NCBI GenBank assembly: GCA_046328905.1
Contig: JAXLVP010000001.1
Coordinates: 2,030,731-2,094,730 of the forward strand
Length of the DNA stretch: 64,000 bases
Origin: Bdellovibrionota bacterium
GTDB lineage: Bacteria; Bdellovibrionota_C; UBA2361; SZUA-149; CAZDWZ01
Direction of reading: 5' to 3'
In this document: positions 40,718-64,000 of the stretch, one piece after another
Numbering within the stretch: position 1 is the stretch's first letter
Layout of the letters: each line of letters begins with the position of its first letter
The notes under the pieces: model-generated
The model's input: the letters and a program-made list of their open reading frames with translations, nothing else
Told to the model about the DNA's origin: nothing
The model's database searches: none
Made by a program: the position numbers and the translations under genes

Positions 40718-40721
40718 TTAG

Positions 40722-43253
<2,532 letters not shown>

Positions 43254-45950: not shown

Positions 45951-45979
45951 CCCAGTACGGGAAGCACATCGGGAGTAGA

Positions 45980-47026: not shown

Positions 47027-47303
47027 CTTTAAGGGTCCGTCCTGAGCCCCAGCCTCCGATTGCCGAAAAGCTCTACGAAGCTCGTGTGACACGACGTCCC
47101 TTACAGTTTAAGTCCGGCGACCCCGCGCCCGAATGCGAAGTTGGAAATTGGTTTCCTCGTGCCGTCACCGGTTTCATCTAGCAAAGGAGCAGTAAGCTGA
47201 GGTATCGACGCGTTTGGTTAGCCTTCGTGTCCGACGTTGTTCGGCGCGTGTTAACCTCTTCATCTCCTGCCGTCGGCCGTAAACACTGAGGAGCTCATCG
47301 AAC

Positions 47304-47783: not shown

Positions 47784-48248
47784 AGTTCAGAACGTGCTTT
47801 TCGCGTTTCCGGAAGACCGTTCCGCAGAGAACGGAAAGGAGAATTGGAGAGAGCAGGATTAAGGGAACTAGAGATGTGGGCATTCAGCGAGCGGCCGCTG
47901 ACATTTCAACAAAATCACCGGCCGCACGCCGAAACAAAACCAAGCTTAACCGAGTCTGAACCTGTAACCTGAAATAACCCAAAAAATAACCGTTTTTATC
48001 CTACTCTCATCCTGCGAAAGCCGCTTTTGAGGCGGGACTCGCGGGAGAAGAGCCGAAGCTAGTCTCCACTAGAACCTTGCTCGTCCGGATCGAATCTCTT
48101 CGAAGCCTGTCCGAGCGAAAAAAACCCCGGGGCGTCCCGGATACTGGTTAGAAGCTCATTCCGCAGAAATCGCTTCAGCCATTAGTGAAACTATAACAAC
48201 GAAACAGCTGAGCAGCAAGAAAATTTCCAAGAAATTCAAATACTTAGA

Positions 48249-48268
48249 CCGAATGTTCATTCGGTTTT
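48249..48268 (+). terminator. Small hairpin plus T-run (CCGAATG tt CATTCGG TTTT) within the ORF-free region upstream of rpmH
   Basis: It was read directly from the sequence. Its function is unknown, and the orientation suits a plus-strand terminator. Confidence 0.25.
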
Positions 48269-48432
48269 GCTACTCCCGTGCTTAAACTCAAGAATACTGT
48301 CTTCGTATGGCTAAGAACCATACGCCAGGGACCGGCGGTATGGTTGATCGCCATACCGAGTACGTAATATTGAGCCAGGCGTGGGAAGAAGGTTGACTTC
48401 ACTTCCTCACCCGTGGCAAAACCCCCGCTCTT

Positions 48433-48594
48433 ATGAAGAGAACATATCAACCAGGAAATAAGAGCCGCCTGCGAACCCATGGGTTTCGCAAGCGCATGTC
48501 GACGAAAGACGGTCAGTCTGTCTTGAAGCGCCGCCGTGCGAAGGGCCGCAAGCGCTTGACGGTTTCGATGCCGCTGAAGGGCCGCAAGAAGTAG
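48433..48594 (+). CDS. rpmH: 50S ribosomal protein L34 (below the 60-aa threshold of the ORF track)
   Basis: Translation gives [53 protein letters not shown], which matches the L34 signature (MKRT[FY]QP...HGFR.RM.T..G..VL..RR.KGRK.L). It sits immediately upstream of rnpA, as in most bacteria. Confidence 0.9.
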
Positions 48595-48747
48595 CGCCCG
48601 ACATTCCGCACGCAATCTCAGACCCCGCTTTAGACTTTCGTCGCTCGCAATCACCTCAAGGCAGTCCACTTGGACGCCAACGCCACTCGTGTGCGTTGCG
48701 TCGTTTGTGGGGTGGACACTAGCCCGTGTGATTCGGAGATTCATGCT

Positions 48748-49251
48748 ATGGCACGCGACGAAAGCTTCGACCGCACGCGACGCGTCCGCAAGCGGCGTGA
48801 TTTCCTGCGCATTCAATCCAGCCGCCGCAAGGTCCGTACTGACCACCTGTTACTTGCAATTTCGCCGCAGAAAACCGTAATATCCGGCTCTCTCGGAACG
48901 ACCGAACGCCCGGCATTTCCTGGGGCGGAACGGACGCGCTTGGGAATTACCGTAACCACGAAAATTGATAAGCGGGCGGCAAGGCGCAATCGATTGAAGC
49001 GCCGGATTCGCGAGTTTTTTCGCCGGGAGCATCACCGATTCCGCGAGACCGTGGATTTAGTGGTCATCGCGCTCGAGGGAGCTACAGAGCTGGATTACGC
49101 GCAGGTGGCCGGCGAGCTCAAGCGGGGATTTGATCGAGCCGGTCTCTATCGTTCGAGCCGTCCCTATAAGAACGAACGCCCACGAGAGGCAGACCGGCCG
49201 AGAAGTCCGCAGAGCGATCGGGGTCCACGTGCCCCAAAGGATGCAAAGTGA
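48748..49251 (+). CDS. rnpA: Ribonuclease P protein component
   Basis: The RnpA RNR motif ([18 protein letters not shown]) and synteny rpmH-rnpA-yidD. The start was chosen at the internal Met. A long basic C-terminal tail overlaps the yidD start (GTGA). Confidence 0.85.
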
Positions 49252-49490
49252 TTAGGACCCTTCGAGAAGCCAACCGTATCCTGGTTTGTTTGCTCGCTTC
49301 CTTGCTGATGCTGTGGAATAAGCTGATCTCGCCTTTTTTCGGGGATCGCTGCCGCTTCTGCCCGAGCTGTTCCGAGTACGCCCGTGATGCCGTTTGCCGG
49401 CATGGAGCACTGCGCGGGATGTGGCTCGCGGCTCGGCGGGTGATCCGCTGTAACCGATTTTTTCCGGGTGGATTCGACCCGGTGCCGTGA
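49248..49490 (+). CDS. yidD: Membrane protein insertion efficiency factor YidD
   Basis: The motif [11 protein letters not shown]...HG. 80 aa with a GTG start that overlaps the rnpA stop. Confidence 0.9.
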
Positions 49491-49540
49491 GGCACCGCTC
49501 TCGAAAAGGCCCTACGTTTGAAAGGATGATACCGTAATCT

Positions 49541-51364
49541 ATGAACGCGTCTGGTACTGGGAACGACCACCGAAAAACGGCCGCCCTCTTTGCATGTTTG
49601 TTCCTGGCCTACATCTACAAACAGATGGTTTGGGACGCCTACTTCAATCAGCGGCCACAAGGCGCGCCGCAGACCCAGGCCGTGCCCGCAGCAACCACCG
49701 CCGATGGAAAGCCGAATCCGACACGCTTTGCAGAGCCGACTGCCCCTACTTTTCAGCCGAGCCCAACATCGGGGCAGCAGCCCAGCCCAATGGCGGCGTT
49801 GTCACCCACCGCTCCGCAGCCTGATGCAGCTGTTCCAGCACAGTATCCAAGCGACGCTCAGATAGATTCCGCCGGCAGTGTCGTGGTCGAGACCGATACT
49901 CTGCGAGTGAAGGTTTCGCTTCTCGGCGGCCGGGTGACTCGTTTGGAGCTGAAGAACTATCTCGGGACCCTCGAAGAGAAGAAGCCGCTCAATCTGATTG
50001 AGCACACGGAGTTTGCTCCCTACCCGCTCGGTGTCTACGCCGGAGCGGTGAACGACGCCTGGGTGAAATATCAACTCACTTCGGGGCAGCAGGTATCTTC
50101 CGGGGCGGAAACTCCTGTTCAGGTGCCCGCGGACGGGGATTCTACGTTCGTCTTTCAGGGTCAGCTTCCGGACGGGCGTCAGATTCAGAAGACGCTTACT
50201 TTTCACAGTAAGGACTACTTCCTCGAGACTTCAGCGAAGTTGAGCCAACCCTCTCCTGACGCGTCGAGAATTGCGGTCGAATGGACGAATCTCGTCGCGC
50301 ATCCGGCTGACCCCTACAACCCTGCGGGCTTTGTTTGGTTCGACGGCCAAAAGGCCCTGCGCGAGCCGTTCGGCAAGCTCGAGTCCAATGACCTCGCTCT
50401 GCCAAATATTTCGTGGGTCAGCATGGGCGATAAGTACTTCATGACGTCGCTCATCTCAGATGACGGCTCGGCCCCCGGCCGTGCGATGAAAACGGACGAG
50501 CTGTTTCGCGCGCGACTCTACGGAACGGATACGGAGAAGCGAGCGAAGGTCTTCGCCGGTCCGAAAAGCTATCGGCTGCTCGAAGCATCCGGTTACGAGC
50601 TGAAGCGCAATATCGACTTCGGCCGGACGGCAATTATTGCGGCTCCACTGCTCGGACTGCTTCACTTGCTGCACGATACTCTCGGAAACTACGGGTTGGC
50701 GATCGTGATGCTCACGATCATCGTGAAGCTTGCGATGTATCCGCTCACCGCGAGCTCCTTCAAACAGATGAAGGCGATGCAGGATCTCGCTCCGGAAATG
50801 AAGCGGATCCGCGATAGCGGCAAGGACAAGCAACAGCAGCAGCTCGAGACGATGGCGCTTTACCGCGAACGGGGGGTCAATCCGCTCGGTGGTTGCTTCC
50901 CAATTCTGGTGCAGATGCCGGTCTTCATCGGCCTGTATTCGGCGTTGCAGCTCGATATCGAGCTGCGCCACGCACCTTTTGCGTTGTGGATTCATGACCT
51001 TTCGGCGCCCGAGAAGCTCCATCTCGTAGGGTTCAGCATTCCCGTGATGGTGATCCTGTTCGTGATCTCCATGTTGGTTCAGCAGTGGACGACTCCGACC
51101 TCGGTGGACCCCTCACAGAAACGCGCGATGCTGATTATGCCGCTCGTTTTCGGCTGGCTCTTCGCGAAGAGCCCGGCCGCGCTCACGCTTTACTGGCTGA
51201 CGAACAACCTCATTTCCATCGGGCAGCAGGCGGGCTTCCGCAGCAAGAAAGCGGCAATGGATTCGGTTGACGGCGATCAAAAGTTGGCGTCGCCGCTCAA
51301 GCTCACGATTCTGATCGCCGGCTCGGTATTCCTCTTTGCTTGGTTGATGACCAAGCTCGGTTAA
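49541..51364 (+). CDS. yidC: Membrane protein insertase YidC (Pro/Gln-rich N-terminal linker)
   Basis: A periplasmic domain and a 60-kDa IMP core (YPLTASSFKQMKAMQDLAPEMKRIR, GGCFPILVQMPVFIGLY). Confidence 0.95.
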   Translation: MNASGTGNDHRKTAALFACLFLAYIYKQMVWDAYFNQRPQGAPQTQAVPAATTADGKPNPTRFAEPTAPTFQPSPTSGQQPSPMAALSPTAPQPDAAVPAQYPSDAQIDSAGSVVVETDTLRVKVSLLGGRVTRLELKNYLGTLEEKKPLNLIEHTEFAPYPLGVYAGAVNDAWVKYQLTSGQQVSSGAETPVQVPADGDSTFVFQGQLPDGRQIQKTLTFHSKDYFLETSAKLSQPSPDASRIAVEWTNLVAHPADPYNPAGFVWFDGQKALREPFGKLESNDLALPNISWVSMGDKYFMTSLISDDGSAPGRAMKTDELFRARLYGTDTEKRAKVFAGPKSYRLLEASGYELKRNIDFGRTAIIAAPLLGLLHLLHDTLGNYGLAIVMLTIIVKLAMYPLTASSFKQMKAMQDLAPEMKRIRDSGKDKQQQQLETMALYRERGVNPLGGCFPILVQMPVFIGLYSALQLDIELRHAPFALWIHDLSAPEKLHLVGFSIPVMVILFVISMLVQQWTTPTSVDPSQKRAMLIMPLVFGWLFAKSPAALTLYWLTNNLISIGQQAGFRSKKAAMDSVDGDQKLASPLKLTILIAGSVFLFAWLMTKLG

Positions 51365-51377
51365 CCGGAGCATCGCT

Positions 51378-52787
51378 GTGAAGGCCGATCCGCATCCGTT
51401 AGGAACTTCGGTCGATACGATAGCCGCTCCGATTACCGCCCATGGACGCGCCGGAGTTGCTGTAGTTCGCATCAGCGGGCCGCTCGCAGCTCCGGTGCTC
51501 GCCCAGATCTCGCCGCGTGCGAGTCTCATCACCGCCCAGCCTCGAACGCTCGTCATGACTCCCTTTCTCGAGGGACAGATTACGGGCGCCGACCATGTGC
51601 TCGACTACGGGCTCGCCGCTTATTTTCCAGCTCCAAACAGCTTTACCGGCGAAGACTGCGTCGAGCTGAATCTTCACGGGAGCCCCTATTTGGTTACTCG
51701 GTTGATGAGCATCCTCGCCGAGCTGGGTGTTCGTTCGGCGAAGCCCGGTGAGTTCAGTGAGCGTGCATTTCTCAACGGGAAGCTGGATCTCAGTCAGGCT
51801 GAGGCAATCGCAGACCTCATCGCCGCGGACACAGAGATCCAAGCCCGTGTCGCGCGGGAGCAGCTCGAGGGTCGCCTTTCGAAGGCGCTCAGCGATCTGG
51901 GGGAGCCGCTCAGAAATCTTCTCGCCGAGATTGAGGCGCACATCGATTTCCCCGATGAGGATATCGAGCCGTTGACGTATTCGGAATGGACAAGCGCTCT
52001 GCGCGCGATAGAAGGGCAAATTGAGGCCTATCTTCGCTCGTTCGCATATGGGCGACTGTGCCGTGAGGGCGCGCTCGTCGTGCTCGCAGGGGTTCCAAAC
52101 GCAGGGAAATCAAGCCTGCTGAACCGGCTTCTGGGCGAGGATCGAGCGATCGTCACCGCCGTGCCGGGAACAACCCGGGATAGTATCGAGGAGCCTGCGT
52201 CGCTGGGCGGGCTGAGAGTTCGATTCTGTGACACGGCCGGCCTTGCGACAGAGCATCGGACACCCGACGAGGTCGAGCAGCTCGGCATCGAGCGGAGCTG
52301 GAAGAAGCTGACCCAAGCCGACCTGGTGCTTTATGTCTTTGACATTTCGACCGGACTTGATGCCGAGCTCGATATCGTTGAAGGGGTCCGTCAATCAGCT
52401 CGAAAGGTGATGCTCGTCGCCAATAAAGCTGACCTCGTTTCGAATGCTGGAGCGGGTAATCTCCCGTCGGGCTCCGATGCCCGTCTCGTCTCTGCCCAAA
52501 ACGGCGAGGGAATCGCTCAGCTCGCTGATGCGATCGTGGCCGAGCTGCTCGGCGATGACGCCCAGTCGGACGCTCTGCTGATAACCAATCAGCGGCATTT
52601 CGAAGCGCTCAGAGGCGCGGACCGGGCACTCAAAGACGCCTTGGTAGCGCTGCAATCCTCGACTCCGGCAGAGTTCGTGGCGGTCGACCTCAGGGCGGCT
52701 CTCGGCGCCCTCGAAGAGATCATCGGCAGCACACCGACCGAGGATATCTTGGGCCGCATCTTTTCTAAGTTCTGTATCGGAAAGTAG
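51378..52787 (+). CDS. mnmE: tRNA uridine-5-carboxymethylaminomethyl modification GTPase MnmE
   Basis: G-domain motifs (GVPNAGKSSL, DTAG, NKAD) and the C-terminal CIGK tetrapeptide. Confidence 0.95.
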   Translation: MKADPHPLGTSVDTIAAPITAHGRAGVAVVRISGPLAAPVLAQISPRASLITAQPRTLVMTPFLEGQITGADHVLDYGLAAYFPAPNSFTGEDCVELNLHGSPYLVTRLMSILAELGVRSAKPGEFSERAFLNGKLDLSQAEAIADLIAADTEIQARVAREQLEGRLSKALSDLGEPLRNLLAEIEAHIDFPDEDIEPLTYSEWTSALRAIEGQIEAYLRSFAYGRLCREGALVVLAGVPNAGKSSLLNRLLGEDRAIVTAVPGTTRDSIEEPASLGGLRVRFCDTAGLATEHRTPDEVEQLGIERSWKKLTQADLVLYVFDISTGLDAELDIVEGVRQSARKVMLVANKADLVSNAGAGNLPSGSDARLVSAQNGEGIAQLADAIVAELLGDDAQSDALLITNQRHFEALRGADRALKDALVALQSSTPAEFVAVDLRAALGALEEIIGSTPTEDILGRIFSKFCIGK

Positions 52788-53242: not shown

Positions 53243-53486
53243 CCTGGTTTTCCTGTTCAAACTGCTGCGCGGCCGCCACCATCCCTGACCGGAATGGGTC
53301 TGACCCTGTTTGGTGAGTCGGTATCTCTCCCTCTTAACGTATATAGATTTGAGCTGTCGAGAAATTCAGGGTAGACCCCTGCCCTGTCATATCGGGTATC
53401 ATCCCCGTTTGGTTCGAGTAATAACAGAATGGGGCGCAGCGCTATCGGTCGTCCCGAAAACTATTACTTCACTGAGACTAGGTACG

Positions 53487-53816
53487 ATGGCTCGTTTGGA
53501 TCGTGAGAAAGCGCTTCGACTCCTCGACGGAGACATGGAAATCTACTCGAAGATAGTGGAAGTCTTCTCCGGAGATGTGCCGGTTCAGTTGAGCGTGCTG
53601 AGCGCTGCGCTCGCAACGAACGACATCAAAGAAGTTGGTCGAGTCGCCCACGCTCTCAAGTCGGCGGCGGCCACGGTCGGAGCCGAAGACCTCCACGCCA
53701 TTCTGTTCAAGCTTGAAAAAGCGGCCGAAGGTCGTTCGCCGGAGTCAATTCATAAGCTCGTTGCCGAAGCGAAGCTGGAAATAGAGGCGGTTCGCGGCGA
53801 GCTCGCCCGCTCCTGA
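53487..53816 (+). CDS. Hpt (histidine phosphotransfer) domain protein
   Basis: An Hpt motif HALKSAAATVGA in a four-helix-bundle-sized (110 aa) helical protein. It is divergent from the receiver gene. Confidence 0.55.
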   Translation: MARLDREKALRLLDGDMEIYSKIVEVFSGDVPVQLSVLSAALATNDIKEVGRVAHALKSAAATVGAEDLHAILFKLEKAAEGRSPESIHKLVAEAKLEIEAVRGELARS

Positions 53817-53871: not shown

Positions 53872-54969
53872 TTACTCCGGGACGATTCTCTGCGCCTGAT
53901 TCTCACCGGTCCGCTTCCATAAGTCGGACAAAACCTCCAACATTCCGTTTGCGATTGTGCGCCGATACGGATGGTTCTGCGGAAGCTGCCTCATCAGGCG
54001 CCGATGTGCCGCTGTCATGGAGTGATAGGGCAAACTGGGAAGGAGGTGGTGAAGGGAATGATAGCGAAGCCCAACCGGTGCGAGCAGCGCTGCGATTGAC
54101 CACGGCGACACGACGGAGATCGAATCGAGAAGCTGGTCGGAGAAATCCACTGTCTGGCCAGGATTCGTGTAGCGATGGGCGCAAAGGCTCCGGATGTAGT
54201 TGTAGGCCATGATGAGCACCAGAGACAGATACGTGTTCAGAAACAGCGCCGCTGGGACAATGCTTTTGGACCAGAGCACGACTACCGCACACCAAAACGC
54301 AGTGGCGTAGACCTCCTGCAAAACGCCAATCATCCGTTGTTCCGCGTTTGGAAGCGGCCGAATGTATTTGAGGTTCATGGCAATCGTGCTCATGTGCTGA
54401 ATCACCCAATTGCGAAATCTACCCCCAATCAGAATCGATATCGGACCGAGCACGATGAAACGCACGGCAAGAAGCACCGGGGCGATCCAGATGTTAAGGA
54501 AAAGAGGGACGAGCCAAGCTGCACGGGAACCCAGACCAAGTGGAACATAACGTGGGTCCGAAGCGGTTCCGAACGTGTTGCTTTTGTGGTGATCGAGGTG
54601 TGAAATTCCGTATGTGGAGGTCGGTTGAAAGAGAATGGCACCGCAGAGCATGTTCCAAACGGTCGAGAACGGTCGCACCCAGGGCCGGTTACTGTGCGCG
54701 ATCTCGTGGATGAAGAACAGCGAGCGGTAGAAAAGAAACGAATTCGCGACGAGAGCTAGCACGCGTAGCCCAAACGAAACTTCAGAGCTCGACGCGAACC
54801 ACAGACAGGCCCATGCGAGGGTGATGCTGGCTGTGAAGTCAGCCCAGTAAACAAGCGGTCGAGGCTCGAGAAGGTCGCCGACAATCAGCTTCACCGCCTT
54901 CATGTCGATTGAGCGATCTTCTGCAACTACCGGCTTCTGTAAGGCGTTTTCGTTCGTTCGCGTTGCCAT
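53872..54969 (-). CDS. Membrane di-iron fatty acid desaturase / AlkB-like hydroxylase family protein
   Basis: Three His boxes (FIHEIAH, SHLDHHK, RYHSLHH) and multiple TM helices. It lies 10 bp downstream of the TonB-dependent receptor gene. Confidence 0.7.
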   Translation of the reverse strand: MATRTNENALQKPVVAEDRSIDMKAVKLIVGDLLEPRPLVYWADFTASITLAWACLWFASSSEVSFGLRVLALVANSFLFYRSLFFIHEIAHSNRPWVRPFSTVWNMLCGAILFQPTSTYGISHLDHHKSNTFGTASDPRYVPLGLGSRAAWLVPLFLNIWIAPVLLAVRFIVLGPISILIGGRFRNWVIQHMSTIAMNLKYIRPLPNAEQRMIGVLQEVYATAFWCAVVVLWSKSIVPAALFLNTYLSLVLIMAYNYIRSLCAHRYTNPGQTVDFSDQLLDSISVVSPWSIAALLAPVGLRYHSLHHLLPSLPYHSMTAAHRRLMRQLPQNHPYRRTIANGMLEVLSDLWKRTGENQAQRIVPE

Positions 54970-54979
54970 AGGTGTTAGC

Positions 54980-57058
54980 TCAATAATGGAGGGTTGCTTT
55001 GGCGTAAAAGCCTCGTTTGATCTCGGTCTCGGGCGGTCCGAAGATGTTGCCGACAAACTCCTCATGATGATCATGAAGGAGGTTTTGGCCGAAGAGGGCG
55101 AGCTCGAGATTGGGCCGTACATGCCAGAGCACTCCGCTATCGAGCTCCGCGTAACCGTCGATATCACCACTTCCCAGGTGGGACACGTATCGGGGCAGGA
55201 AGCTCAGTTCGAAGTCCTCCGCTACGGTCAGGTATACCCGAGCGTTGAGCTGGTTTCGCGGTGTCCCTTCCTCGATGAGCAGCTTGTCGCCACTATCGGT
55301 GCTGTCTCCCTGGTCAACGCCGATGTCGATGAAGGAATAACCGCCGGCCAGACGGGCCCAGTTTGTCGGATGCCAATCAAGAGAAACTTCAAATCCGATT
55401 GATCTGGCATCAAGGGCATTGTCGAAGAGGACGGGGATAACAACCGTAGGACGATCTGCTCCGGGAGCAGTGCCGAAATACGGTGTCCCGCCCTCGAAGC
55501 TGTAGACATCCGAGTAACGATTGTAGAAGGTTGCAAAGTCGACAGAAACCTCCGGAGACAGCTGCGATCGCGCTCCGAGCTCGTAGGAAAGGACGTCTTC
55601 AGATTCGACCTTCCGGCTGCCGAATGCGGTTACAAGAGCCTCAGGTGAGCCGTCCGAGGCCGGAATTGCGGCGATTGGAAACTGAACGTCCTCAAATACC
55701 AGTGACGGCGGCGCCACGGCGCGAGAGACGGCGAGCCAAATCGAGTTCGCCGAGTCCGGTGTCCAAATCAAGCGTGCGTTCGGCATCACCTCGTTTCCTG
55801 TGGCGACGTTGTGCTCGAACTTCGAGCCGAGAATGAAATGCAGCTGATTTTCGATCAGCGCGATCTCGTCCTGGACAAAGCACGACACAAGGTCTTTTTG
55901 CCGATTCGGGGGATTCGTGCTCTCAGCGAACGTGCCTTCTGTGGCACTCCAAAAGTGCTGATATTCGACGCCGTAGACGACGTCGTTGCCTGCAAACGGT
56001 GTGAAACGATGCTGAAAATCCGCATCGGAAACGTTATAGTCCAGATGGATGATCGTGCTGTCGAGCGTCTGCTGACGATAACTGTAATGCGCTTCGAGCG
56101 AAGAGGTCTGAGTCATTTCCCGCCTCCACTTCACTGAGCCCATACCGCCTTTCCACTTCTCCTGCCCGCTAAAGCTCTCACTATCGACGTAGGGTGGGTC
56201 TAGGGAGGGCGTCTGCGGTCGGATTTCCGTGGAGTTGCCAAATGTCTCCCCCCCGACGAAAAGTGTGTCCTCAGCCGAAAGCTTTGACTCTGCGCGCAAG
56301 CCGCCGGAGATGATTTCCCAACCGTCGTCAGCGTCGCCGCCCGTTTTCAGCTCGTTCGACGCGCGGTCGGCGTATCTTCCGAAGACCCGATACGTGGTGT
56401 CGTCACCGACGGTTCCGCCGTAGCGGAGCGAGCCGAAGCCGCGTTCCTCGTTTCCGCCGCCACCGCTCGCAAGAAGTCCCTGCGTTTGTTTGGTTCGCTT
56501 CGTGATGATGTTAATCACGCCGTTTACAGCGTTTTCGCCCCATAAAGCTGCACCGGGGCCGCGGATGACTTCAATCCGCTCGACGTCGTCGAGGACGATC
56601 TCATTGGTCTCCCAATAGACGCCGTTGGTGATCGGTGAGAACACGCTGACACCGTCGAGCAATACGAGAAGCTTGTTCGCAAAAACTTGGTTGAAGCCGC
56701 GGATGCTGATGGCCCACTTGCTCGACGAAACCCGTGCTACGCTCACGCCCGGCACCAAGCGTAGCGCCTCTGCGACGTGAGTCGCGCCGGAGCGGCGAAT
56801 ATCCTCATTCGTGATCACGTAGACGGCGGAGGCTGTTTCCGAAAGCGTCTGCTCCTTTTTGCCCGCTGATGTGACGACGAGGTCGAACGTCAGCAGCTTC
56901 TTGAGACCGACCTCTGTGAGGTCGCCAGGCAGAGCAGAATCGTCTTGCGTGGCGCTCGGTCCCGGATGGGACGCCGACGAGTCTGATTGTCCCGCGGTTT
57001 GCGCATTCGCGAGAGGTGTCAGGAGCGCTGTCAGCGCAGCTACCGAGAACCAATGCAT
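54980..57058 (-). CDS. TonB-dependent outer-membrane receptor
   Basis: A signal peptide (MHWFSVAALTALLTPLANA), a TonB box / plug domain (LVVTSAGKKEQTLSETASAVYVITNEDIRRSGA...VPGVSVAR...IRG) and a long beta-barrel ending in an aromatic residue (LHY). Confidence 0.85.
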   Translation of the reverse strand: MHWFSVAALTALLTPLANAQTAGQSDSSASHPGPSATQDDSALPGDLTEVGLKKLLTFDLVVTSAGKKEQTLSETASAVYVITNEDIRRSGATHVAEALRLVPGVSVARVSSSKWAISIRGFNQVFANKLLVLLDGVSVFSPITNGVYWETNEIVLDDVERIEVIRGPGAALWGENAVNGVINIITKRTKQTQGLLASGGGGNEERGFGSLRYGGTVGDDTTYRVFGRYADRASNELKTGGDADDGWEIISGGLRAESKLSAEDTLFVGGETFGNSTEIRPQTPSLDPPYVDSESFSGQEKWKGGMGSVKWRREMTQTSSLEAHYSYRQQTLDSTIIHLDYNVSDADFQHRFTPFAGNDVVYGVEYQHFWSATEGTFAESTNPPNRQKDLVSCFVQDEIALIENQLHFILGSKFEHNVATGNEVMPNARLIWTPDSANSIWLAVSRAVAPPSLVFEDVQFPIAAIPASDGSPEALVTAFGSRKVESEDVLSYELGARSQLSPEVSVDFATFYNRYSDVYSFEGGTPYFGTAPGADRPTVVIPVLFDNALDARSIGFEVSLDWHPTNWARLAGGYSFIDIGVDQGDSTDSGDKLLIEEGTPRNQLNARVYLTVAEDFELSFLPRYVSHLGSGDIDGYAELDSGVLWHVRPNLELALFGQNLLHDHHEEFVGNIFGPPETEIKRGFYAKATLHY

Positions 57059-57119
57059 TCGGAGCTTGCGTAAGAAGCGTGGAGAAGGCTTTCCGCGCCC
57101 CGAGGTTTTCCATTGAGCC

Positions 57120-58043
57120 TTATTCATTTCCAGCACGTCGCCGCGGCTCCTCTCCGCTCAGCTTCTCCGACAGCGGTCGGCGAAAAGTTACTAAGATGTT
57201 TCCGCGTGGCGGAAAAAAATATCCGAAAAATGCCTCGAAAAGCAGGCGGGGAGAACGAAACATCACCGACTTTTGCATCGGTTGGACGCAGACGTCGATC
57301 ATTCCGCCGGTGGCGTTGATGTAGGACCACATGTAACGCGTATTCACGGTCGGGATGAGGCTGTCGAAGTAAAAGCGTCTCAGCGTGTGCTGCACCTCGA
57401 GCGAGTGCTCTCTGGCGAGCTCGAAGAGCACGCGACCCGAAAGTATATGCCTGTGGTACGGCTGTGAAAGCTCCATTGCAGGAAATGTCCGGTACTGAAG
57501 CGGAATGTGGTCGGCATTCGGTGTTCCTAGCACCATCAGACCACCGGGCCTGACCCGTCCGACGAGCATGTTGAGAAACTCCCGTGGACTGTCGACGTGC
57601 TCGATGACGTCGTAGGACACGACGGCATCAAACGTTTGAGAGAAGATACCGGGGTCGTTGAACTGCTGAACGAACGAATCGAATCCGAAGACATTGGTAT
57701 AACCCGCCGACCTCAGCACTTGAAGAAAAAGCCCTGCGCCGCAGCCGAAATCGAGAATACGGTCGGTCTTCTTCAGGCCGAATCGCTCGAGCAGACGAAT
57801 TCGATTTGCGTATCCGACACGCGTGTGGAAATCCAATCGGTGATTCTTGAACGGGTATCGGTCGTAGTAGTGCAGCAGGTCGACTTCTTCCTTGGAGTGC
57901 AGAGAACCGCAGTTCGTGCAGCGCCAAACGGTGAAGTGGTCGTTTCGAAAGCAGTCGACGTGGCACGGGATGGAGGCGACATCCGTGGCGCCGGCAAAGG
58001 TGCCCGGATTGTCACAAAGATTACATTCCAGACACTCAGCCAT
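57120..58043 (-). CDS. Class I SAM-dependent methyltransferase with an N-terminal Cys4 zinc ribbon
   Basis: CLECNLC...CTNCGS, then the Rossmann motif ILDFGCGAGLF and an acidic DVIEHV. Confidence 0.7.
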   Translation of the reverse strand: MAECLECNLCDNPGTFAGATDVASIPCHVDCFRNDHFTVWRCTNCGSLHSKEEVDLLHYYDRYPFKNHRLDFHTRVGYANRIRLLERFGLKKTDRILDFGCGAGLFLQVLRSAGYTNVFGFDSFVQQFNDPGIFSQTFDAVVSYDVIEHVDSPREFLNMLVGRVRPGGLMVLGTPNADHIPLQYRTFPAMELSQPYHRHILSGRVLFELAREHSLEVQHTLRRFYFDSLIPTVNTRYMWSYINATGGMIDVCVQPMQKSVMFRSPRLLFEAFFGYFFPPRGNILVTFRRPLSEKLSGEEPRRRAGNE

Positions 58044-59340
58044 GAGCTGCCCTCCGATTGTTTGTTACTTGGCCGCGAGGCTCTGCGCCGGTTACCTCGT
58101 TGAGGATTGAGGGGAAGATCTTTTCCGGTCGATACTCTTCCAGCTCTTTCGCAATTTCCTTTGCGAGATCTCGATGGCGAGTGGAGCGAAGTAGGGCTGT
58201 GAGCGCAGTTTTGAAATCCTCAGCAGATGAGTTGTCCGCCCTGCACAAAATTCCGGCGCCGCAGCGATGAACGTTGGTCATGCACAGGAGCTGGTCCATG
58301 TTCGAAGCGATACCGAGCACGGGTTTTCCTTGAGCGAGCGCTTGGTAGGTGGACGGGCTGCCGCCGTTCGAAATCACTACGTCGGCTCGTTGAGCCAGAG
58401 CTTCACCCGGAAGATATTCAGCGTGTCGAAATCCGCTTGGAATCTGATCGGATGCGATGCGGCCGGCGGTTGCTAAAACGACCTGGCAGTCCAGTGATCG
58501 GAGCGCTTCGAACAGCGTTGGAAGCACTTCCAGCGGCCCCGAAGAGCCGAGCGAGAGATAGATTATCGGCTTCGAGTCAGACAGATTGGACCACCAACTG
58601 GGAAGACCGCATTCGGGCGTCCAAGAAACTGAACCGAGGTAGCGATGTGAGGGCAGCAGCTTCTCGACGGGGGCGATTCCTGGCGTGTCCGAGAAACAGG
58701 TGATATCGCCCCAGGTAAAGCCGGTGAGATAGTTCTCGAACGGAGGAAGGCCATATTCCCGCCTGACCTGGTCGAGCCCTCGGGCCTGCCTTTTCATGAC
58801 CAGCGGAAGAAGCATGTGGAAGAGGCCTTCTGCTGCGCGCACACCGACGCCGCCTTTTAATCGATGGAGCCCCAACGTCCGGATCGGTTCGAACGAGGGA
58901 AGCGGAAATCGGTTTCGTTCTGCAAAAGGACTCCAATACGCGTTCGTCAGGGAGACGTATGGAATACGCTTGACGGTAGCGCTCACTCCGAGCGAAAGCC
59001 GCATGTCGCCCACGACGGCATCAGGCGAGAGCCGTTCGAGCAGCCCGAGATCTTCTTCTGTCCGCGTTCGGACGGTGTCCTCCGGGAAGAGCTCGGCCCC
59101 TTTCGCGAGAATCTCCAGAAACTCTTCGGGCGATGTCGAGTGGACCTTGTGATACGTGCACCGGGTTTCGTCGATGAGGGGTCGGTAGCGCTCGGCGCAG
59201 CAAAAATGCACGTCGAAAAGCTCGCGATCAAGGCACTGCGCGAGCACGTAAGGTCTAACGACGTGGGCGAGAGTCACTCCTTCGCCGAGGAACAAGATTC
59301 GCTTTTTTTGAGCTTTTTTCCGAGGGTCAGCCGTCGTCAC
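58036..59340 (-). CDS. GT1-family UDP-glycosyltransferase (MGT / macrolide-glycosyltransferase-like)
   Basis: A GT-B fold with the C-terminal UDP-sugar binding region (HAEYLPGEALAQRADVVISNGGSPSTYQALAQGKPVLGIASNMDQ, a PSPG-like box). It overlaps the methyltransferase start by 8 bp. Confidence 0.8.
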   Translation of the reverse strand: MTTADPRKKAQKKRILFLGEGVTLAHVVRPYVLAQCLDRELFDVHFCCAERYRPLIDETRCTYHKVHSTSPEEFLEILAKGAELFPEDTVRTRTEEDLGLLERLSPDAVVGDMRLSLGVSATVKRIPYVSLTNAYWSPFAERNRFPLPSFEPIRTLGLHRLKGGVGVRAAEGLFHMLLPLVMKRQARGLDQVRREYGLPPFENYLTGFTWGDITCFSDTPGIAPVEKLLPSHRYLGSVSWTPECGLPSWWSNLSDSKPIIYLSLGSSGPLEVLPTLFEALRSLDCQVVLATAGRIASDQIPSGFRHAEYLPGEALAQRADVVISNGGSPSTYQALAQGKPVLGIASNMDQLLCMTNVHRCGAGILCRADNSSAEDFKTALTALLRSTRHRDLAKEIAKELEEYRPEKIFPSILNEVTGAEPRGQVTNNRRAAHG

Positions 59341-59368
59341 GTGTGGTTCGGTCCAAAAGAGTTTCCGT

Positions 59369-60196
59369 TCACTCCCTGAGCACTGCTACTTCGAGAAGCT
59401 CTGAATCGATCTTCAGCCCCAAGCGATGGGCAAGTGGAAGATCGACCGCGATGCGCGCGCGATTCGACTCTGCGAAGAGTTGCATCACGCAATTTCCCCA
59501 CTGAACTCTCTCCACGGAACAAACGGAGAGAAGCGGGTGATTTTTCAGTTGTTCGACAAATCCTCGGTCGTTCGTCAACACATCCGATCCGACGAAAACG
59601 ACGTTGCACTGCTGAAGCAGAACGCTGCTGCCGCGCTCCGCAAATGTGACTCGGATCTTTTTTCCGCGGGCCGATTTTCCTCGAACGGTATCAGCGATGA
59701 ACCCGTTGAGCGGGTCGGACCCGACGACGCAAAGCGAAATAGGGGCGCCGGGTCCATTGGATGGAGACCCTGCCGACGCATCTTCCGACGAACTTTGCGT
59801 GCTGCCGGAGGACGCTTCGGGCAATGAAACGAATTTCACGAGGTAGTAGACGAGAGCTGCCCGAATCTTCCCTGAACGATCTTCGACCGTATCGGCGAGC
59901 GCCGATGAAGGCGCAATCACAACTAAAAAATAAAACACAGCAGATACGAGAACGCAAACGCGTCTGCGGTGTCCGGCGACGCTGCGCCGAATCTCGGAGC
60001 GAGGCGAGAGCTTTGCGGAGAATCGGTTTCTCACATTGTTGCCGGTGAAGCTGCTCTTCGATGCGGTCATGTTCGCGACGGGCATATCACCCGCTTTGCT
60101 GATGAACGCACGCGAGTGCCGTTCGATGAACGATCGACTGAAGTATCTGCGCTGCGGAGCTTCGGCGCGACAGCTTTCTTTCGAGATCGCTCGCAT
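59369..60196 (-). CDS. Secreted DUF4154 / YfiR-like periplasmic protein
   Basis: A signal peptide (RRRVCVLVSAVFYFLVVIAPSSALA) and C-terminal blocks (ISLCVVGSDP, VVFVGSD, IAVDLPLAHRLGLKIDSELLEVAVL) that resemble the YfiR family. The start is uncertain within the ORF. Confidence 0.45.
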   Translation of the reverse strand: MRAISKESCRAEAPQRRYFSRSFIERHSRAFISKAGDMPVANMTASKSSFTGNNVRNRFSAKLSPRSEIRRSVAGHRRRVCVLVSAVFYFLVVIAPSSALADTVEDRSGKIRAALVYYLVKFVSLPEASSGSTQSSSEDASAGSPSNGPGAPISLCVVGSDPLNGFIADTVRGKSARGKKIRVTFAERGSSVLLQQCNVVFVGSDVLTNDRGFVEQLKNHPLLSVCSVERVQWGNCVMQLFAESNRARIAVDLPLAHRLGLKIDSELLEVAVLRE

Positions 60197-60390
60197 TTAG
60201 GGAGTTATGGGACAATCCTCCCCATGCTTGTAAAATATCGGCTCAAATCACGGCAAGTCCGAATTTATTGTCGCAAATTGCAACAGCCCAAGCGTTGATT
60301 GCGTGGGGTCGTTGTTGTACATCGCTGACTTTGCGCGACCGTTTCTGCTTTCCGGCCGCGACCAACGACCCATTACAGCGCCGAAAGAAC

Positions 60391-62031
60391 ATGGCCCCGA
60401 GAAGCGCAACATCACACCGGATGCTGTTCACCGGCGCCCGTTTTTCCGCTGCTGTTGCGCGGTGGATCCACTGCCTCGGAGCGGATTCGGTTATCGTGAG
60501 CACTGAGCGATGTGCCGATTTCGTGCAAGGTTGTGAGCCGAAGCACGCTGTGCCGCCCGCTCTTCTCCGTCCCGTATCTGTCCACCAGCTTCGCGAGCTC
60601 GTGCAGATCGCCGCTGAGTTTTCGATTCCCATCCATCCGGTCAGCCGCGGGAAAAATTGGGGCTACGGCTCCGCGTCGGCGTCACAAGAGGGCTGCGTCG
60701 TGGTCGATCTCGGCGCGTTGAACCGTGTTCTCGAGGTAAACGCCGACCTCGCATACGCCGTGATCGAACCAGGCGTCACTCAGGAGCAGCTCTACCGCTA
60801 CCTCGAGGAGCAGAACATACCACTGATGGTCGACGTCACCGGTGCACCACCCAGTGCGAGCATCGTCGGAAACACCATTGAGCGGGGATACGGCTACACC
60901 CCCTACAGTGATCATTTTGCTCATACGGCATGCTTCGAAGTGTTGCTTTCGGACGGAACCTTGTTTGAAACCGGGTTCGGTCGCTTTGCAAATGCTCGGG
61001 CAAAATACCTTCATAAAACGGGCATCGGCCCGTCGCTCGACGGTTTGTTCACCCAGTCGAACTTCGGCATCGTGACGAAGATGGCCGTCTGGTTGATGCC
61101 GAAGCCTGATCGCTGTGCAGCGTATGTCGTTCAGGCGCAGAACGACGCTGAGCTTGCACGAATGTTGGTCGCATTGCGGGACCTGAAGCTCCGCGGTTTG
61201 GTCGAAGGCAGTCCTCATGTGGTGAACGATTTGCGTTCGCTGTCGTTGCTCGCCCAGTTTCCTTTCGACTCATCCAGTCCGGACACATTCGGTGAGAATG
61301 AGCTGAGCATTCTTCGAAAGCGGTGGGGAGTAGCCCCCTGGACCTGCATCGGTGGCCTTTGGGGCACGGAAGGTCAGGTCGCAGAATCCGCTCGCGCAAT
61401 TGCTGAACGGATGAAATCCGCCGGTCTGACCGAGCCGCAAATTCTCTCCGCGCTCGAGGTCTCGGGAGACCAGCACGATTGCACTCTTCCCAAAACCGAG
61501 GAGGAGCTTACCCGCTACCGCGCCGAATTGATGTCTGCCTTGGTGAGCGGCATTCCTACCATGCGCGCGATTCCAGGGATGTATTGGCGGAAGCGCCAAC
61601 CGGCGAACCGCTCGAGCTTGGATCCAATCCGAGATAAATGCGGCCTGCTCTGGTGCTCGCCGGTGATTCCGCTCACAGAAGCAGACTCTAACCTGCTCAT
61701 GTCGATCATTCGCGGCACGTGCAGAGAGCGCCGACTGGAAGTGAACGTCGCACTCGCTCTTGTCAACGATCGCACAGCGACGGCGACAGTCGGGCTTTTC
61801 TTTGATCCTGCCGAGCCCGAGCAGCGAGCAGCAGTCGAGGAGGCATACTCAACGCTTTTGCGACGTTTCGCGGAGTCGGGGTACTTCCCCTATCGAGGAG
61901 CCGATACGCTGAGTGAGCTCTGCGGCGCTCCGAATCAATCGGAGATAGCGTTTCAGCAGGTCTGTTATCGCATCAAGAGCGCGCTTGACCCGCAACATAT
62001 TGTTTCGCCCAATCGTTACGGCATCATTTGA
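60391..62031 (+). CDS. FAD-linked oxidase of the VAO/PCMH family (p-cresol methylhydroxylase PchF / vanillyl-alcohol oxidase-like)
   Basis: The FAD_binding_4 region VSRGKNWGYGSAS...VDLGALNRVLEVNADLAYAVIEPGVTQEQLYRYLEEQNIPLMVDVTGAPPSASIVGNTIERGYGYTPYSDHF closely mirrors the PchF/VAO N-terminal domain. The start was chosen at the internal Met. Confidence 0.75.
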   Translation: MAPRSATSHRMLFTGARFSAAVARWIHCLGADSVIVSTERCADFVQGCEPKHAVPPALLRPVSVHQLRELVQIAAEFSIPIHPVSRGKNWGYGSASASQEGCVVVDLGALNRVLEVNADLAYAVIEPGVTQEQLYRYLEEQNIPLMVDVTGAPPSASIVGNTIERGYGYTPYSDHFAHTACFEVLLSDGTLFETGFGRFANARAKYLHKTGIGPSLDGLFTQSNFGIVTKMAVWLMPKPDRCAAYVVQAQNDAELARMLVALRDLKLRGLVEGSPHVVNDLRSLSLLAQFPFDSSSPDTFGENELSILRKRWGVAPWTCIGGLWGTEGQVAESARAIAERMKSAGLTEPQILSALEVSGDQHDCTLPKTEEELTRYRAELMSALVSGIPTMRAIPGMYWRKRQPANRSSLDPIRDKCGLLWCSPVIPLTEADSNLLMSIIRGTCRERRLEVNVALALVNDRTATATVGLFFDPAEPEQRAAVEEAYSTLLRRFAESGYFPYRGADTLSELCGAPNQSEIAFQQVCYRIKSALDPQHIVSPNRYGII

Positions 62032-62138
62032 TCGTGCCGCAACCGCGTTTTTGATCGGTTTTTGAGGTCCGTTCGTTGTCGTTGGTGACGCCGAGCGGGA
62101 GACACACAATTGCGAAGAAGGGGAGAATTCAAACCAGA

Positions 62139-63497
62139 ATGGAAGTCGGGCTCGCTGCAGATTTCTCGGAACGTTGCCAAGCGTGGCACTTGGTGCACCG
62201 CCAATACACAAGAAAGGGCCTTTCTCCGGCGAACCCGAGCAGGATGCTGTTTTCACCGCTCGACCTGCTTCCAACCTCTGTCACGGCCGTCGCACACGAA
62301 GCAGGCGACCTTGTCGGCACGATGTCCGCAGTCATCTGTCCGGTCGGTGCGCTCCCATCGGGCAAACAATTTGAAGCGGATTTAGAGGAGTTCGGCGTCG
62401 AGGGGCGGATCGTTTGCGAGTTCACAAAGCTCGCTTGCGTCGATGACCGCGGCCCCATCGGTGAGCAGGCAGTCCTCTGGATCGTCGGCTATCTTCTCGA
62501 ATGGTGCTCGCGGAATCTGGTTGATGACGTTTTTTGTGTCACGCATCCGCGGCACGCGCTCGCATGGAATCGCATCTTCGGATGGTCGCCAATCAGTGCG
62601 GTGAAGTCGTGCCCGCACGTCAACGCTGCGCCGGGGGTATTGCTCCATATTGACTTACGAAGGCTGCAAAGCGACCGCGCAGCCATCAGCGTCCGGGGAC
62701 GAAGGATCCTGAGCGAGTGCGCAGGAATGTGTCGCCAGGGGGCGACATCCTACCGGATGACCGGCTCGGAAGCCGCCCTGTTGATGCTCCAATGCCCGGA
62801 CCCGATTGACCGCACAAACACGATTCAGCGGAGCCTGCTGACTCGCTACTATCCCTGGGCGACCACATTTATCGAGCGTTTCATGAGCTCTGCCGCGGAA
62901 CCGTGGCGCCCGCTCTCATTCACTTCGCTGCGGAAGCCCCATCGGGAGAGAGGATATTCTTTCTCACTCCACGGCCCTCGGCCGGATTCGAGCCAGCCGC
63001 CCGAGCTGTTCAGTGGAGAGGAGCCTCGCTTTCTCGTCGTTGGAGGAACGCCTTATCTACAGTCCGTGATGCGCCGTCAGCTGCGAGACCGAAACTACCA
63101 CTGCTCGATAGTACGAGACCCGGCGATCGCTCGGAAGCATGCGCAGCGAGAACGATTCGACCTGGTGCTGCTCAGCGAAAAGCTGCAGGGGGAGCAGGGT
63201 CAGCTCTTTGCGGACGAAATCAGAGACGTCGATGGCGCTCTGAGAAGGCACACCCCGATTTTACAGCTCAGAGCCGCGCAAACTTCAGGTGAGACTCTCC
63301 GCCGCGGAGGCGAACGCCCCTTGAAACAGTGGGTTTACGAGTACTCCTCCCCCACCCTCCTTCTCCGTGCGCTGGACACACTCTCATCGGCACCGCCGAA
63401 GCGGGATTACCAAGCGTATGCGGAGGAACTGAGCGGGTGGTCGAGAGAAACCGTTCGACAGCGCGAACGAGCCGCAGCGCATGCGGGACGGGCGTGA
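62139..63497 (+). CDS. Fusion protein: N-terminal FeeM-family N-acyl amino acid synthase-like GNAT domain plus C-terminal degenerate (pseudo-)receiver domain
   Basis: The N-terminal ~240 aa follows the pattern of FeeM / PEP-CTERM-associated N-acyltransferases (a LxHRxY block, a central hydrophobic core and HPRHALAWNRIFGW). The C-terminus has a receiver-like alpha/beta pattern, but VVGGTP replaces the acidic DD pair, LVLLSEKL places Ser where the phospho-Asp should be, and PILQLRA follows. Confidence 0.5.
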   Translation: MEVGLAADFSERCQAWHLVHRQYTRKGLSPANPSRMLFSPLDLLPTSVTAVAHEAGDLVGTMSAVICPVGALPSGKQFEADLEEFGVEGRIVCEFTKLACVDDRGPIGEQAVLWIVGYLLEWCSRNLVDDVFCVTHPRHALAWNRIFGWSPISAVKSCPHVNAAPGVLLHIDLRRLQSDRAAISVRGRRILSECAGMCRQGATSYRMTGSEAALLMLQCPDPIDRTNTIQRSLLTRYYPWATTFIERFMSSAAEPWRPLSFTSLRKPHRERGYSFSLHGPRPDSSQPPELFSGEEPRFLVVGGTPYLQSVMRRQLRDRNYHCSIVRDPAIARKHAQRERFDLVLLSEKLQGEQGQLFADEIRDVDGALRRHTPILQLRAAQTSGETLRRGGERPLKQWVYEYSSPTLLLRALDTLSSAPPKRDYQAYAEELSGWSRETVRQRERAAAHAGRA

Positions 63498-63522
63498 AGA
63501 CGCACGAGATGGGGTGACGACA

Positions 63523-63771
63523 ATGGGAAACCGATTCGGATCATCCAATAAACGCGAGGCCAAGGCTGAGAAGGCTCCCGTCGAGGCCCCGGCTTCCTTC
63601 CGGAAGCAGGTTCGGCTATTCGAAATCGAAGTGGTCGAAGATGCGCTCCGGCTGAACAACTTCAATGAGTCACAGACGGCGAGATATCTCAAAATGGACC
63701 GGAATACACTCAGACGCATCCGTGCTCGAGCGCGGCAGCAGCGTAGGAATGACGAAAAAAGCGGTGGCTAA
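63523..63771 (+). CDS. Standalone Fis-type helix-turn-helix DNA-binding protein (resembles the NtrC C-terminal HTH)
   Basis: VEDALRLNNFNESQTARYLKMDRNTLRRIRA is a typical Fis/NtrC-family HTH. 83 aa from the internal Met. Confidence 0.55.
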   Translation: MGNRFGSSNKREAKAEKAPVEAPASFRKQVRLFEIEVVEDALRLNNFNESQTARYLKMDRNTLRRIRARARQQRRNDEKSGG

Positions 63772-64000
63772 TGCGCGTTCGTTGTCGACCCGGGTTCAGC
63801 GTCCTTGATGAGGAAGCTCTCGATTGTCGAAAGGAGCGTATCCTTGTCGATTGGCTTGTTGAGAAAAGCGTCCATCCCGCAGTCGATACACTTCTGGAGT
63901 CCGTCCGGGCCCACGCTGGCCGTGAACGCGACGATCGGGAGGTGGTTCTGCGCCCCCTGTTCCCGCTCACGAATAACGCGCGTTGCTTGAAATCCGTCGA
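63768..64000 (-). CDS. 3' end of a receiver-domain-containing protein (response regulator or hybrid histidine kinase), truncated by the window end
   Basis: Minus-strand translation gives ...IREREQGAQNHLPIVAFTASVGPDGLQKCIDCGMDAFLNKPIDKDTLLSTIESFLIKD*, a classic receiver C-terminus. It is convergent with the Fis-HTH gene, with a 4-bp overlap. Confidence 0.55.
   Translation of the reverse strand, partial: DGFQATRVIREREQGAQNHLPIVAFTASVGPDGLQKCIDCGMDAFLNKPIDKDTLLSTIESFLIKDAEPGSTTNAH

Follow-up and report, generated by a model that had tools for sequence, protein, structure and literature searches.

Fusion of a putative FeeM-type N-acyl amino acid synthase with a pseudo-receiver beside a predicted envelope-sensor module in a Bdellovibrionota bacterium

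Introduction

What does a receiver domain do when it has lost its phosphorylation chemistry and is joined to an enzyme? This question is raised by a gene in a 64,000-nucleotide (nt) stretch of DNA from a Bdellovibrionota bacterium (GenBank assembly GCA_046328905.1, contig JAXLVP010000001.1, positions 2,030,731 to 2,094,730), referred to here at its full length as the window. The gene (62139–63497, + strand) encodes a protein of 452 amino acids (aa) in which open reading frame (ORF) analysis, domain matches, a 13-member alignment and an AlphaFold model identify an N-terminal FeeM-type N-acyl amino acid synthase and a C-terminal receiver-like domain. Known FeeM-type synthases are stand-alone proteins of about 190–300 aa, whereas the window protein carries this additional domain.

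The N-acyl amino acids of bacteria, among them antibiotics, biofilm modulators and signal look-alikes, are lipids with biological activity, and to our knowledge their regulation is essentially unknown. Response regulators with an enzyme as output are well known (CheB, PleD/WspR, RpfG and RssB-type proteins). We know of no described N-acyl amino acid synthase that carries a receiver or a pseudo-receiver, or that is tied to a module of CHASE8 kinase, YfiR-like protein and TonB-dependent receptor. Pseudo-receivers account for about 6% of bacterial receivers (PMC12632262), and the bacterial examples FrzS, the second domain of PleD, CmrT and NblR have been reviewed (PMC12632262, PMC4395418).

Analysis of the receiver-like domain

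An earlier sequence-only reading of this DNA proposed an acyltransferase fused to a receiver-like domain that could not be phosphorylated conventionally, and Pfam matches, PDB matches and alignments bear out both parts. The domain occupies aa 297–416 (63027–63386, + strand) as delimited by HMMER, MAFFT and AlphaFold. Its Pfam match to Response_reg (PF00072) covers aa 299–378 at E=1e-4 and, with 22.8 bits, lies under the cutoff of 30.2. A phmmer search of aa 288–452 against PDB returned receivers, flavodoxins and one designed protein, with the hybrid-kinase receiver 7c1j (E=3.6e-5) and CheY 4h60 (E=1.2e-3) as the best matches. A profile of the four family members found first had 78 matches to receiver domains in PDB at E≤0.01, led by 8phn (2e-8), and a jackhmmer search started from the canonical receiver of a sister protein recovered window aa 297–410 with E=2.5e-25. 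By its sequence the domain is a receiver homologue; chance resemblance to receivers is ruled out by the phmmer, family-profile and jackhmmer matches. The best PDB and NCBIfam matches of the family receiver are hybrid-kinase, RcsC, RpfC, BarA, ArcB and TorS receivers, and by sequence comparison it is assigned to the hybrid-kinase or phosphorelay type, not to the NtrC type.

None of the five active-site residues of receivers is present in the window protein. HMMER alignments and MAFFT agree in placing D12, D13, D57, T87 and K109 of E. coli CheY opposite G302, G303, S346, R378 and E401, the last of which falls in a poorly modelled segment (aa 379–402) with a predicted local distance difference test score (pLDDT) below 50. 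The glycine pair at 302–303, the serine at 346 and the arginine at 378 had already been read from the sequence in the correct register, and the alignments bear out all three substitutions and add the lysine position to the losses. A register error at the phospho-acceptor aspartate was considered and is excluded, since three independent alignments agree.

A domain that is computationally recognised as a receiver and lacks the phosphotransfer residues is a pseudo-receiver as defined in the literature (PMC12632262), and the window domain is one. Measured against the pseudo-receivers described by Bourret et al. 2025, it is extreme: typical ones keep about 65% of D/T/K (PMC12632262), whereas here all five positions are lost. 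Three further features set it apart from typical pseudo-receivers: it lies C-terminal to an enzyme and not N-terminal to an output domain, its α4-β5 region looks degenerate, and its output would be a lipid synthase. It resembles CmrT in CmrRST as a receiver homologue without phospho-residues inside an otherwise normal two-component locus.

Two AlphaFold models were obtained from shallow alignments, one of four sequences (pLDDT 73.5) and one of 13 sequences (pLDDT 81.8, predicted template modelling score 0.81). The succession β1-α1-β2-α2-β3-α3-β4 is confident in both (pLDDT 83–89), whereas α4/β5 (aa 379–402) is confident in neither; a helix at aa 404–416 follows. Fold searches with the full-length models returned only GNAT matches among the top ranks listed and lend the receiver fold no separate support from structure. 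The protein ends in a long helix (aa 424–451; 63408–63491, + strand), seen in both alignment and model, whose KRDYQAYAEEL motif is common to the closest relatives, labelled here P0002, P0009 and L012 (P and L numbers are our own labels for proteins and loci).

Comparative analysis of FeeM-REC proteins

A word-indexed protein search found four to six relatives, three of them full-length, and the whole family came to light when 1.84 billion cluster representatives were searched exhaustively with HMMER. It comprises at least 40 clusters at 50% identity. No relative turned up when family patterns were run against contigs of GTDB genomes and of JGI metagenomes. Public names were available for only three members, two of them 'response regulator' (from Bdellovibrionota and Bdellovibrionales metagenome-assembled genomes) and one 'hypothetical protein'. 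Our literature searches found no published account of the FeeM-REC architecture and no relevant work joining a FeeM-type synthase with a response regulator or histidine kinase. The family is rare and so far confined to metagenomic Bdellovibrionota-like lineages. The earlier description of the architecture as unusual is therefore correct as to its rarity and its absence from the papers found, but the window protein is a member of a sizeable family and not a singleton.

The family falls into a short and a long group. The short group, with the architecture of the window protein, consists of about 13 clusters of 400–462 aa, and the receiver-like domain is full length in all 13 at no more than 50% identity. 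The complete active-site quintet occurs in none of the 13 members. Residues at the phospho-acceptor column are S, G, A, T, N, D, D, G, N, D, N, N and D, and the lysine position is occupied by glutamic acid in eight of the 13. The same domain holds an invariant motif, I-R362-x-x-D365-x5-H371-T372-x-I374. Because R362, D365, H371, T372 and I374 are invariant in the family, the sequences argue for a pseudo-receiver that keeps a function.

The long group is represented by 28 proteins of 555–643 aa among the best 150 matches. Pfam assigns them an N-terminal FeeM domain and a full-length C-terminal Response_reg domain (E=1e-11 to 1e-29), and the set E/D-D-D-T/S-K is complete in 19 of these 28 receivers. 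The proteins stop about 15–30 aa past the receiver and contain no helix-turn-helix (HTH) and no AAA+ domain. Because long-group proteins with FeeM at the N-terminus and a canonical receiver at the C-terminus end in this way, the synthase, not a DNA-binding domain, is to be read as the output or partner of the receiver. The middle region of about 170 aa matches histidine-kinase catalytic cores (7p8e, E=2.5e-10; 7z8n, 2.4e-5; RetS, 0.06), and direct reading of this ATPase-like domain (aa ~300–450; P0016, P0020, P0026 and others) found neither the N-box asparagine nor DxGxG. The C-terminal 300 aa or so align to the catalytic ATPase (CA) plus receiver half of the neighbouring CHASE8 kinase with E of about 1e-31.

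Long-group proteins resemble receiver-controlled enzymes of the CheB, PleD, WspR and RpfG type, with the domain order reversed (enzyme, degenerate CA, receiver) and an acyltransferase as output. They also have the appearance of 'pseudo hybrid kinases' in which the synthase replaces the sensor, and the combination of a degenerate ATPase-like domain with a receiver recalls hybrid pseudo-kinases of the RetS type, a weak match at the E-value given above. The window protein differs from them in the loss of the CA-like domain as well as of phosphorylation.

By neighbour joining of the synthase domains, all receiver-fused proteins group in a single clade that excludes most stand-alone FeeM-like proteins but takes in a few that are shorter or have no receiver. 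Within it the short group is monophyletic, in a tree without support values. The simplest history suggested by these sequences is that a synthase joined the CA-receiver half of a hybrid kinase and that one lineage then lost the CA-like domain together with the phospho-chemistry.

The sensing module and control of the synthase

Beyond a small HTH gene, the window ends within the 3' part of a gene (63768–64000, − strand) whose translation identifies it, with 54% identity to the kinase of locus L003, as a hybrid histidine kinase of the architecture CHASE8-HAMP-HisKA-HATPase_c-REC. The complete gene is present on the 100%-identical contigs L009 and L010 (L010, 1638–3524) and encodes 628 aa. Its H-box and receiver aspartate are intact, it has no histidine phosphotransfer (HPt) domain, and its NCBIfam match is HK_near_YfiR_like (E=6.8e-37). 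Locus contexts for the family were drawn from exact-protein look-ups and are mostly short metagenomic contigs; wherever the contig reaches, a CHASE8 kinase adjoins the synthase-receiver gene, in the short group (L001, L003, L008, the P0012 locus and L012) as well as in the long group (L005 and L007). These partner kinases are 38–48% identical to the window kinase over about 600 aa and, by sequence, are orthologous across the two groups.

Two further genes complete the apparent sensor. A YfiR-like periplasmic protein (DUF4154; Pfam E=1.2e-23; NCBIfam TOL_0243 E=2.6e-17, below cutoff) is encoded divergently at 59369–60196 (− strand), and a TOL_0244-like TonB-dependent outer-membrane receptor with a plug domain (NCBIfam NF053590, E=2.1e-154) at 54980–57136 (− strand). 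Both recur in L001, L004, L007, L008 and the P0012 locus. Taken together, the two groups share one conserved cluster: its TonB-dependent receptor, YfiR-like protein, synthase-receiver gene and CHASE8 kinase, usually with a flavoenzyme of the 4-phenol oxidase type, recur across L001, L003, L004, L005, L007, L008 and the P0012 locus, and the short group has a glycosyltransferase and a methyltransferase in addition. NCBIfam recognises a corresponding trio: NF053590 (TOL_0244 TonB receptor), NF053591 (TOL_0243 YfiR-like) and NF053592 ('sensor histidine kinase, YfiR-like protein-associated'). The window proteins score 515, 63 and 127 bits against cutoffs of 645, 125 and 194 and all lie below them; the sensing module is a divergent relative of this gene trio, which is apparently unstudied, and adds to it the synthase-receiver gene and tailoring enzymes. 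Our literature searches found nothing joining DUF4154 with a histidine kinase and, for CHASE8 with YfiR, just unrelated work on YfiN. The pairing of a YfiR-like protein with a CHASE8 sensor recalls YfiBNR (TpbB); here a TonB-dependent receptor is also encoded, the sensor is a hybrid histidine kinase and not a diguanylate cyclase, and YfiB was not among the proteins seen. At the edge of the cluster, 53487–53816 (+ strand; the start probably being M60 of the ORF 53310–53816) encodes a stand-alone HPt protein (Pfam Hpt, E=3.2e-13, motif HALKSAA), which may complete a His-Asp-His relay from the CHASE8 kinase, itself without HPt.

From these elements the following mode of control can be proposed. 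In the long group the adjacent CHASE8 hybrid kinase would phosphorylate the receiver and thereby switch lipid synthesis on or off. The short group has lost the ATPase-like domain and all phospho-chemistry and has kept the receiver fold up to β4, the IRxxDx5HTPI motif and the kinase as neighbour. Its pseudo-receiver would act by docking or allosterically and bind a partner in the phosphorelay, either the kinase (through its dimerisation and phosphotransfer domain or its receiver) or the stand-alone HPt protein, perhaps through the conserved α3-β4 motif. Docking would couple the activity or localisation of the synthase to an envelope sensor made up of the TonB-dependent receptor, the YfiR-like protein and the CHASE8 kinase. 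We regard such control without phosphorylation as the most likely mechanism, with a probability of about 0.5; an interaction or allosteric role had also been suggested from the sequence alone and is a reasonable reading. Docking-type mechanisms of pseudo-receivers within otherwise normal two-component systems have been discussed, the binding of pseudo-receivers to components of their own two-component system is an explicit hypothesis in the field, and FrzS binds its partner through the α3-β4-α4 face (PMC12632262).

Several observations weigh against this proposal. Loss of the chemistry is not uniform, as four short-group members keep aspartate at the phospho-site with the metal-binding acidic pair missing. 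The receiver-like half is 19–28% identical to the same three homologues with which the whole protein shares 31–47%. The α4-β5 segment, where the AlphaFold pLDDT is below 50, is the classic output face of receivers and is modelled worst, and by the models the pseudo-receiver may be partly unfolded or remodelled. A tblastn search with the window HPt against the fetched loci, whose flanks are short, found no other copy. All homologues are metagenomic singletons, the synthase-domain tree carries no support values, and the identity of the substrate, considered below, is drawn from gene neighbourhood only.

Some of these observations would fit a pseudo-receiver that persists as a passive structural relic or serves constitutively in dimerisation. 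In that case the enzyme would always be active, and the cluster would be regulated transcriptionally through the kinase-HPt relay and a true response regulator, the HTH protein, or both. Loss of every residue of the phospho-chemistry, the poorly predicted α4-β5 region and the weak conservation of the C-terminal half would all be expected of a relic or scaffold; stand-alone receivers near the cluster (L001, L008 and the P0012 locus) could be the real targets of the kinase, and constitutively active pseudo-receivers regulated by expression are a recognised model (PMC12632262). A mere relic does not account for a domain kept at full length in all 13 clusters with five invariant residues beyond the needs of folding, nor for an orthologous kinase that stays strictly adjacent even after loss of the phospho-site. 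We consider a relic or scaffold the main rival, possible but doubtful, and prefer the docking or allosteric module.

The synthase and its probable product

The synthase gene starts with ATG at 62139, about 14 nt downstream of a Shine-Dalgarno-like sequence (GAAGGGGAG). Because homologues conserve residues within the first 35 aa (F9, E11 and A15), the sequences indicate that 62139 is the true start. NCBI lists the identical protein as 'MAG: response regulator [Bdellovibrionota bacterium]', with 417 aa and a start at 62244 that lies 35 codons too late. The annotation can be corrected on two counts: it truncates the protein by 35 aa, and its name misses the enzyme.

The acyltransferase core, with a GNAT/LuxI-like fold closest to FeeM, spans aa 14–172 (62178–62654, + strand). 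Its Pfam match to FeeM (PF21926) has E=7.3e-28 and 97.8 bits against a cutoff of 27. The active-site glutamic acid expected in an E-x-x-x-x-A strand is found as Glu94 in CEFTKLA; it is invariant in the family profile and aligns opposite the glutamic acid of the FeeM strand AEVVQFA. Van Wagoner and Clardy are said to have proposed in 2006 that this FeeM residue is the catalytic general base. By its sequence the enzyme looks intact. A helical extension of four helices with a conserved YYPWA motif follows at aa 173–255 (62655–62903, + strand; profile matches and models, with helices spanning 185–253 in the structure models) and occurs also in stand-alone FeeM-like proteins of 260–300 aa, many of which match profile positions 7–250.

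Between the enzyme and the pseudo-receiver lies a poorly ordered linker (aa 256–296; 62904–63026, + strand) with pLDDT below 50 at aa 279–293. Alignment reveals in it a K-P-x-R-E/D-R motif, in which P267 and R269 are nearly invariant among the 13 short-group members. The longer form K-P-x-R-E/D-R-x-F (62934–62963, aa 266–275) is kept in all short-group linkers, which are otherwise disordered. The motif might have survived from the segment 'P-x-x-F-A-L-R' with which the ATPase-like domain begins in the long group; alternatively, it might serve in binding.

Upstream of the synthase, at 60268–62031 (+ strand), a flavoprotein of the p-cresol methylhydroxylase (PCMH)/vanillyl-alcohol oxidase (VAO) family of 4-phenol oxidoreductases is encoded (FAD_binding_4; PDB 1dii). 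It matches PCMH 1dii with E=1e-69 over PDB-chain residues 14–515, is also homologous to vanillyl-alcohol oxidase and eugenol oxidase, and recurs in L001, L004, L007 and L008. In alignment, Tyr95 and Tyr473-Arg474 of PCMH are matched by the motifs NWGYG and FPYR of the window oxidase; the position of Tyr384, which binds flavin adenine dinucleotide covalently, is ambiguous by one residue. We take Tyr95, Tyr473 and Arg474 to be the phenolate-binding triad. Enzymes of the PCMH/VAO type oxidise para-alkylphenols at the benzylic carbon. Its longest ORF exceeds the homologues by about 40–55 aa, and the true start is probably near 60391.

Because a synthase of N-acyl amino acids is presumably co-transcribed with a 4-phenol oxidase, the product is probably an N-acyl-tyrosine-type lipid. 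The oxidase would dehydrogenate or hydroxylate the N-acyl-tyrosine at the phenol side chain. Further tailoring of the lipid by methylation, glycosylation and acyl-chain desaturation would fall to three enzymes encoded on the − strand: a SAM-dependent methyltransferase (Methyltransf_23 in Pfam; 57120–58043; conserved in L007 and L008), a GT1-family, EryCIII/UDPGT-like glycosyltransferase (domain matches; 58036–59340; kept also in L001, L008 and the P0012 locus) and, at the edge of the cluster, a membrane protein of the fatty-acid desaturase family (53872–55170; Pfam FA_desaturase, E=2.2e-22). In the putative cluster for stieleriacine, an N-acyl-dehydrotyrosine, synthase genes occur together with those for a methyltransferase, a desaturase and an oxidoreductase (PMC7293339). 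The window cluster parallels it in the kinds of genes, and the PCMH/VAO-type oxidase of the window differs from the enzyme proposed for stieleriacines.

Identity of the synthase to FeeM is only 19–21%, and sequence does not reveal substrates. A different enzyme of the LuxI/GNAT type, for instance an acyl-homoserine-lactone-like synthase or an acetyltransferase acting on proteins or small molecules, would accord with both facts and would make the N-acyl-tyrosine pathway wrong. We hold this to be unlikely, as the conserved 4-phenol oxidase neighbour with its intact phenolate triad fits a tyrosine-derived amide.

The Fis-type HTH gene and remaining alternatives

At 63523–63771 (+ strand), 25 nt downstream of the synthase gene, Pfam and homologues identify a stand-alone 82-aa Fis-type HTH protein. 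The gene, whose existence had been predicted by the sequence-only reading, is real: its match to HTH_8 (PF02954) is over the cutoff, with E=8.4e-8. Because its stand-alone homologues, 82% and 52% identical, are 83 and 81 aa long respectively, the sequences support the start that gives 82 aa over NCBI's 96-aa start at 63481, 14 codons early. The HTH gene is probably co-transcribed with the synthase gene. Its stop codon and that of the kinase gene, which converges on it from the − strand, overlap at 63768–63771. There is no terminator space between the two genes, and a promoter and terminator scan of 59300–64000 returned nothing above shuffled expectation.

The same reading took the HTH protein for the detached output of an NtrC-like regulator whose input would be the receiver-like domain, the two parts still cooperating. 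This idea draws on the position of the HTH_8 gene directly downstream on the same strand, on its best NCBIfam matches, which are the C-termini of NorR, PspF, ActR/PrrA and NtrC, and on the repetition of the gene order in one distant relative. In that relative, L012, the 81-aa HTH homologue with 52% identity lies between a 36%-identical synthase-pseudo-receiver gene and a convergent kinase. The HTH_8 motif is bona fide and resembles that of the NtrC/Fis family and of ActR/PrrA/RegA (receiver plus HTH_8), but it stands in a gene of its own, without AAA+, and is not conserved with the synthase-receiver gene.

Comparison of the loci goes against a split regulator. An HTH gene lies between synthase and kinase in just two of seven short-group loci (the window and L012). 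By tblastn and gene calls it is absent from the other five, L001, L003, L006, L008 and the P0012 locus, where the synthase and kinase genes abut, overlap or are at most about 160 bp apart without a called gene. The loci without it include those of the closest full-length relatives, P0002 and P0009. It is likewise absent from both long-group loci (L005 and L007), and long-group proteins terminate just past a canonical receiver. Domain scans found no AAA+ match anywhere in the locus, no fused receiver-HTH relative was found among the family members, and the receiver is of the hybrid-kinase type. Because the gene is absent from most loci, it is best read as a lineage-restricted accessory gene and not as the ancestral output of the family receiver; the protein is possibly a local transcription factor. 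The claim of a detached output is accordingly very unlikely to be right, and an origin of the HTH gene by gene split is rejected.

Non-canonical phosphorylation, on Ser346, on the neighbouring Glu347 or Asp341 or by a Ser/Thr kinase, can appeal to the serine at the phospho-acceptor column of the window protein and to plant pseudo-response regulators phosphorylated away from the conserved aspartate position (PMC12632262), and is the least credible alternative, because that column varies among S, G, A, T, N and D across the family with no conserved phosphorylatable residue, the acidic pair, threonine and lysine are all gone in the window protein, and domain scans of the cluster saw no Ser/Thr kinase gene.

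Other features of the neighbourhood

The lipid-signal cluster starts directly after an origin-proximal region (35709–52787) with dnaA, dnaN, recF, gyrB, gyrA, gpsA, a thioesterase gene, rnpA, yidC and mnmE. In longest-ORF coordinates the desaturase and TonB receptor genes overlap by about 190 nt, and the DUF4154 protein has 275 aa compared with 168–199 aa in homologues; the true starts of desaturase/TonB receptor, DUF4154 and oxidase probably lie further downstream. Loci L001 (13715–16915) and P0012 (13565–17817) contain, near the kinase, a single-module gene resembling a nonribosomal peptide synthetase (A-T-C, 1066 aa) or a pair of genes for a resistance-nodulation-division efflux pump, which hints at more product tailoring or export.

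Significance

Because the synthase is fused to two-component hardware within a conserved envelope-sensor cluster, our analysis suggests that a histidine kinase directly controls lipid-signal synthesis post-translationally. A wider and decidedly tentative proposal is that FeeM-REC proteins form a so far unrecognised class of response regulators with a lipid signal, likely an N-acyl-tyrosine derivative, as output, and that together with the TonB receptor, the YfiR-like protein and the CHASE8 kinase they make up a self-contained produce-and-sense envelope loop in Bdellovibrionota-like bacteria. In the clade of the window protein this loop would have been rewired, with the receiver acting as a decoy or adaptor on the HPt protein or the kinase.

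How bacterial pseudo-receivers are switched has been called an open question by the field (PMC12632262). The family, in which canonical receivers are matched by fully degenerate ones and the partner kinases are orthologous, constitutes a natural experiment on pseudo-receiver switching. If the loop has been rewired as just described, the window protein would be a natural case of a receiver turned from a substrate into a regulator of its own phosphorelay. The paired canonical and degenerate forms offer a useful test case both for pseudo-receiver function and for the regulation of bacterial lipid signals.

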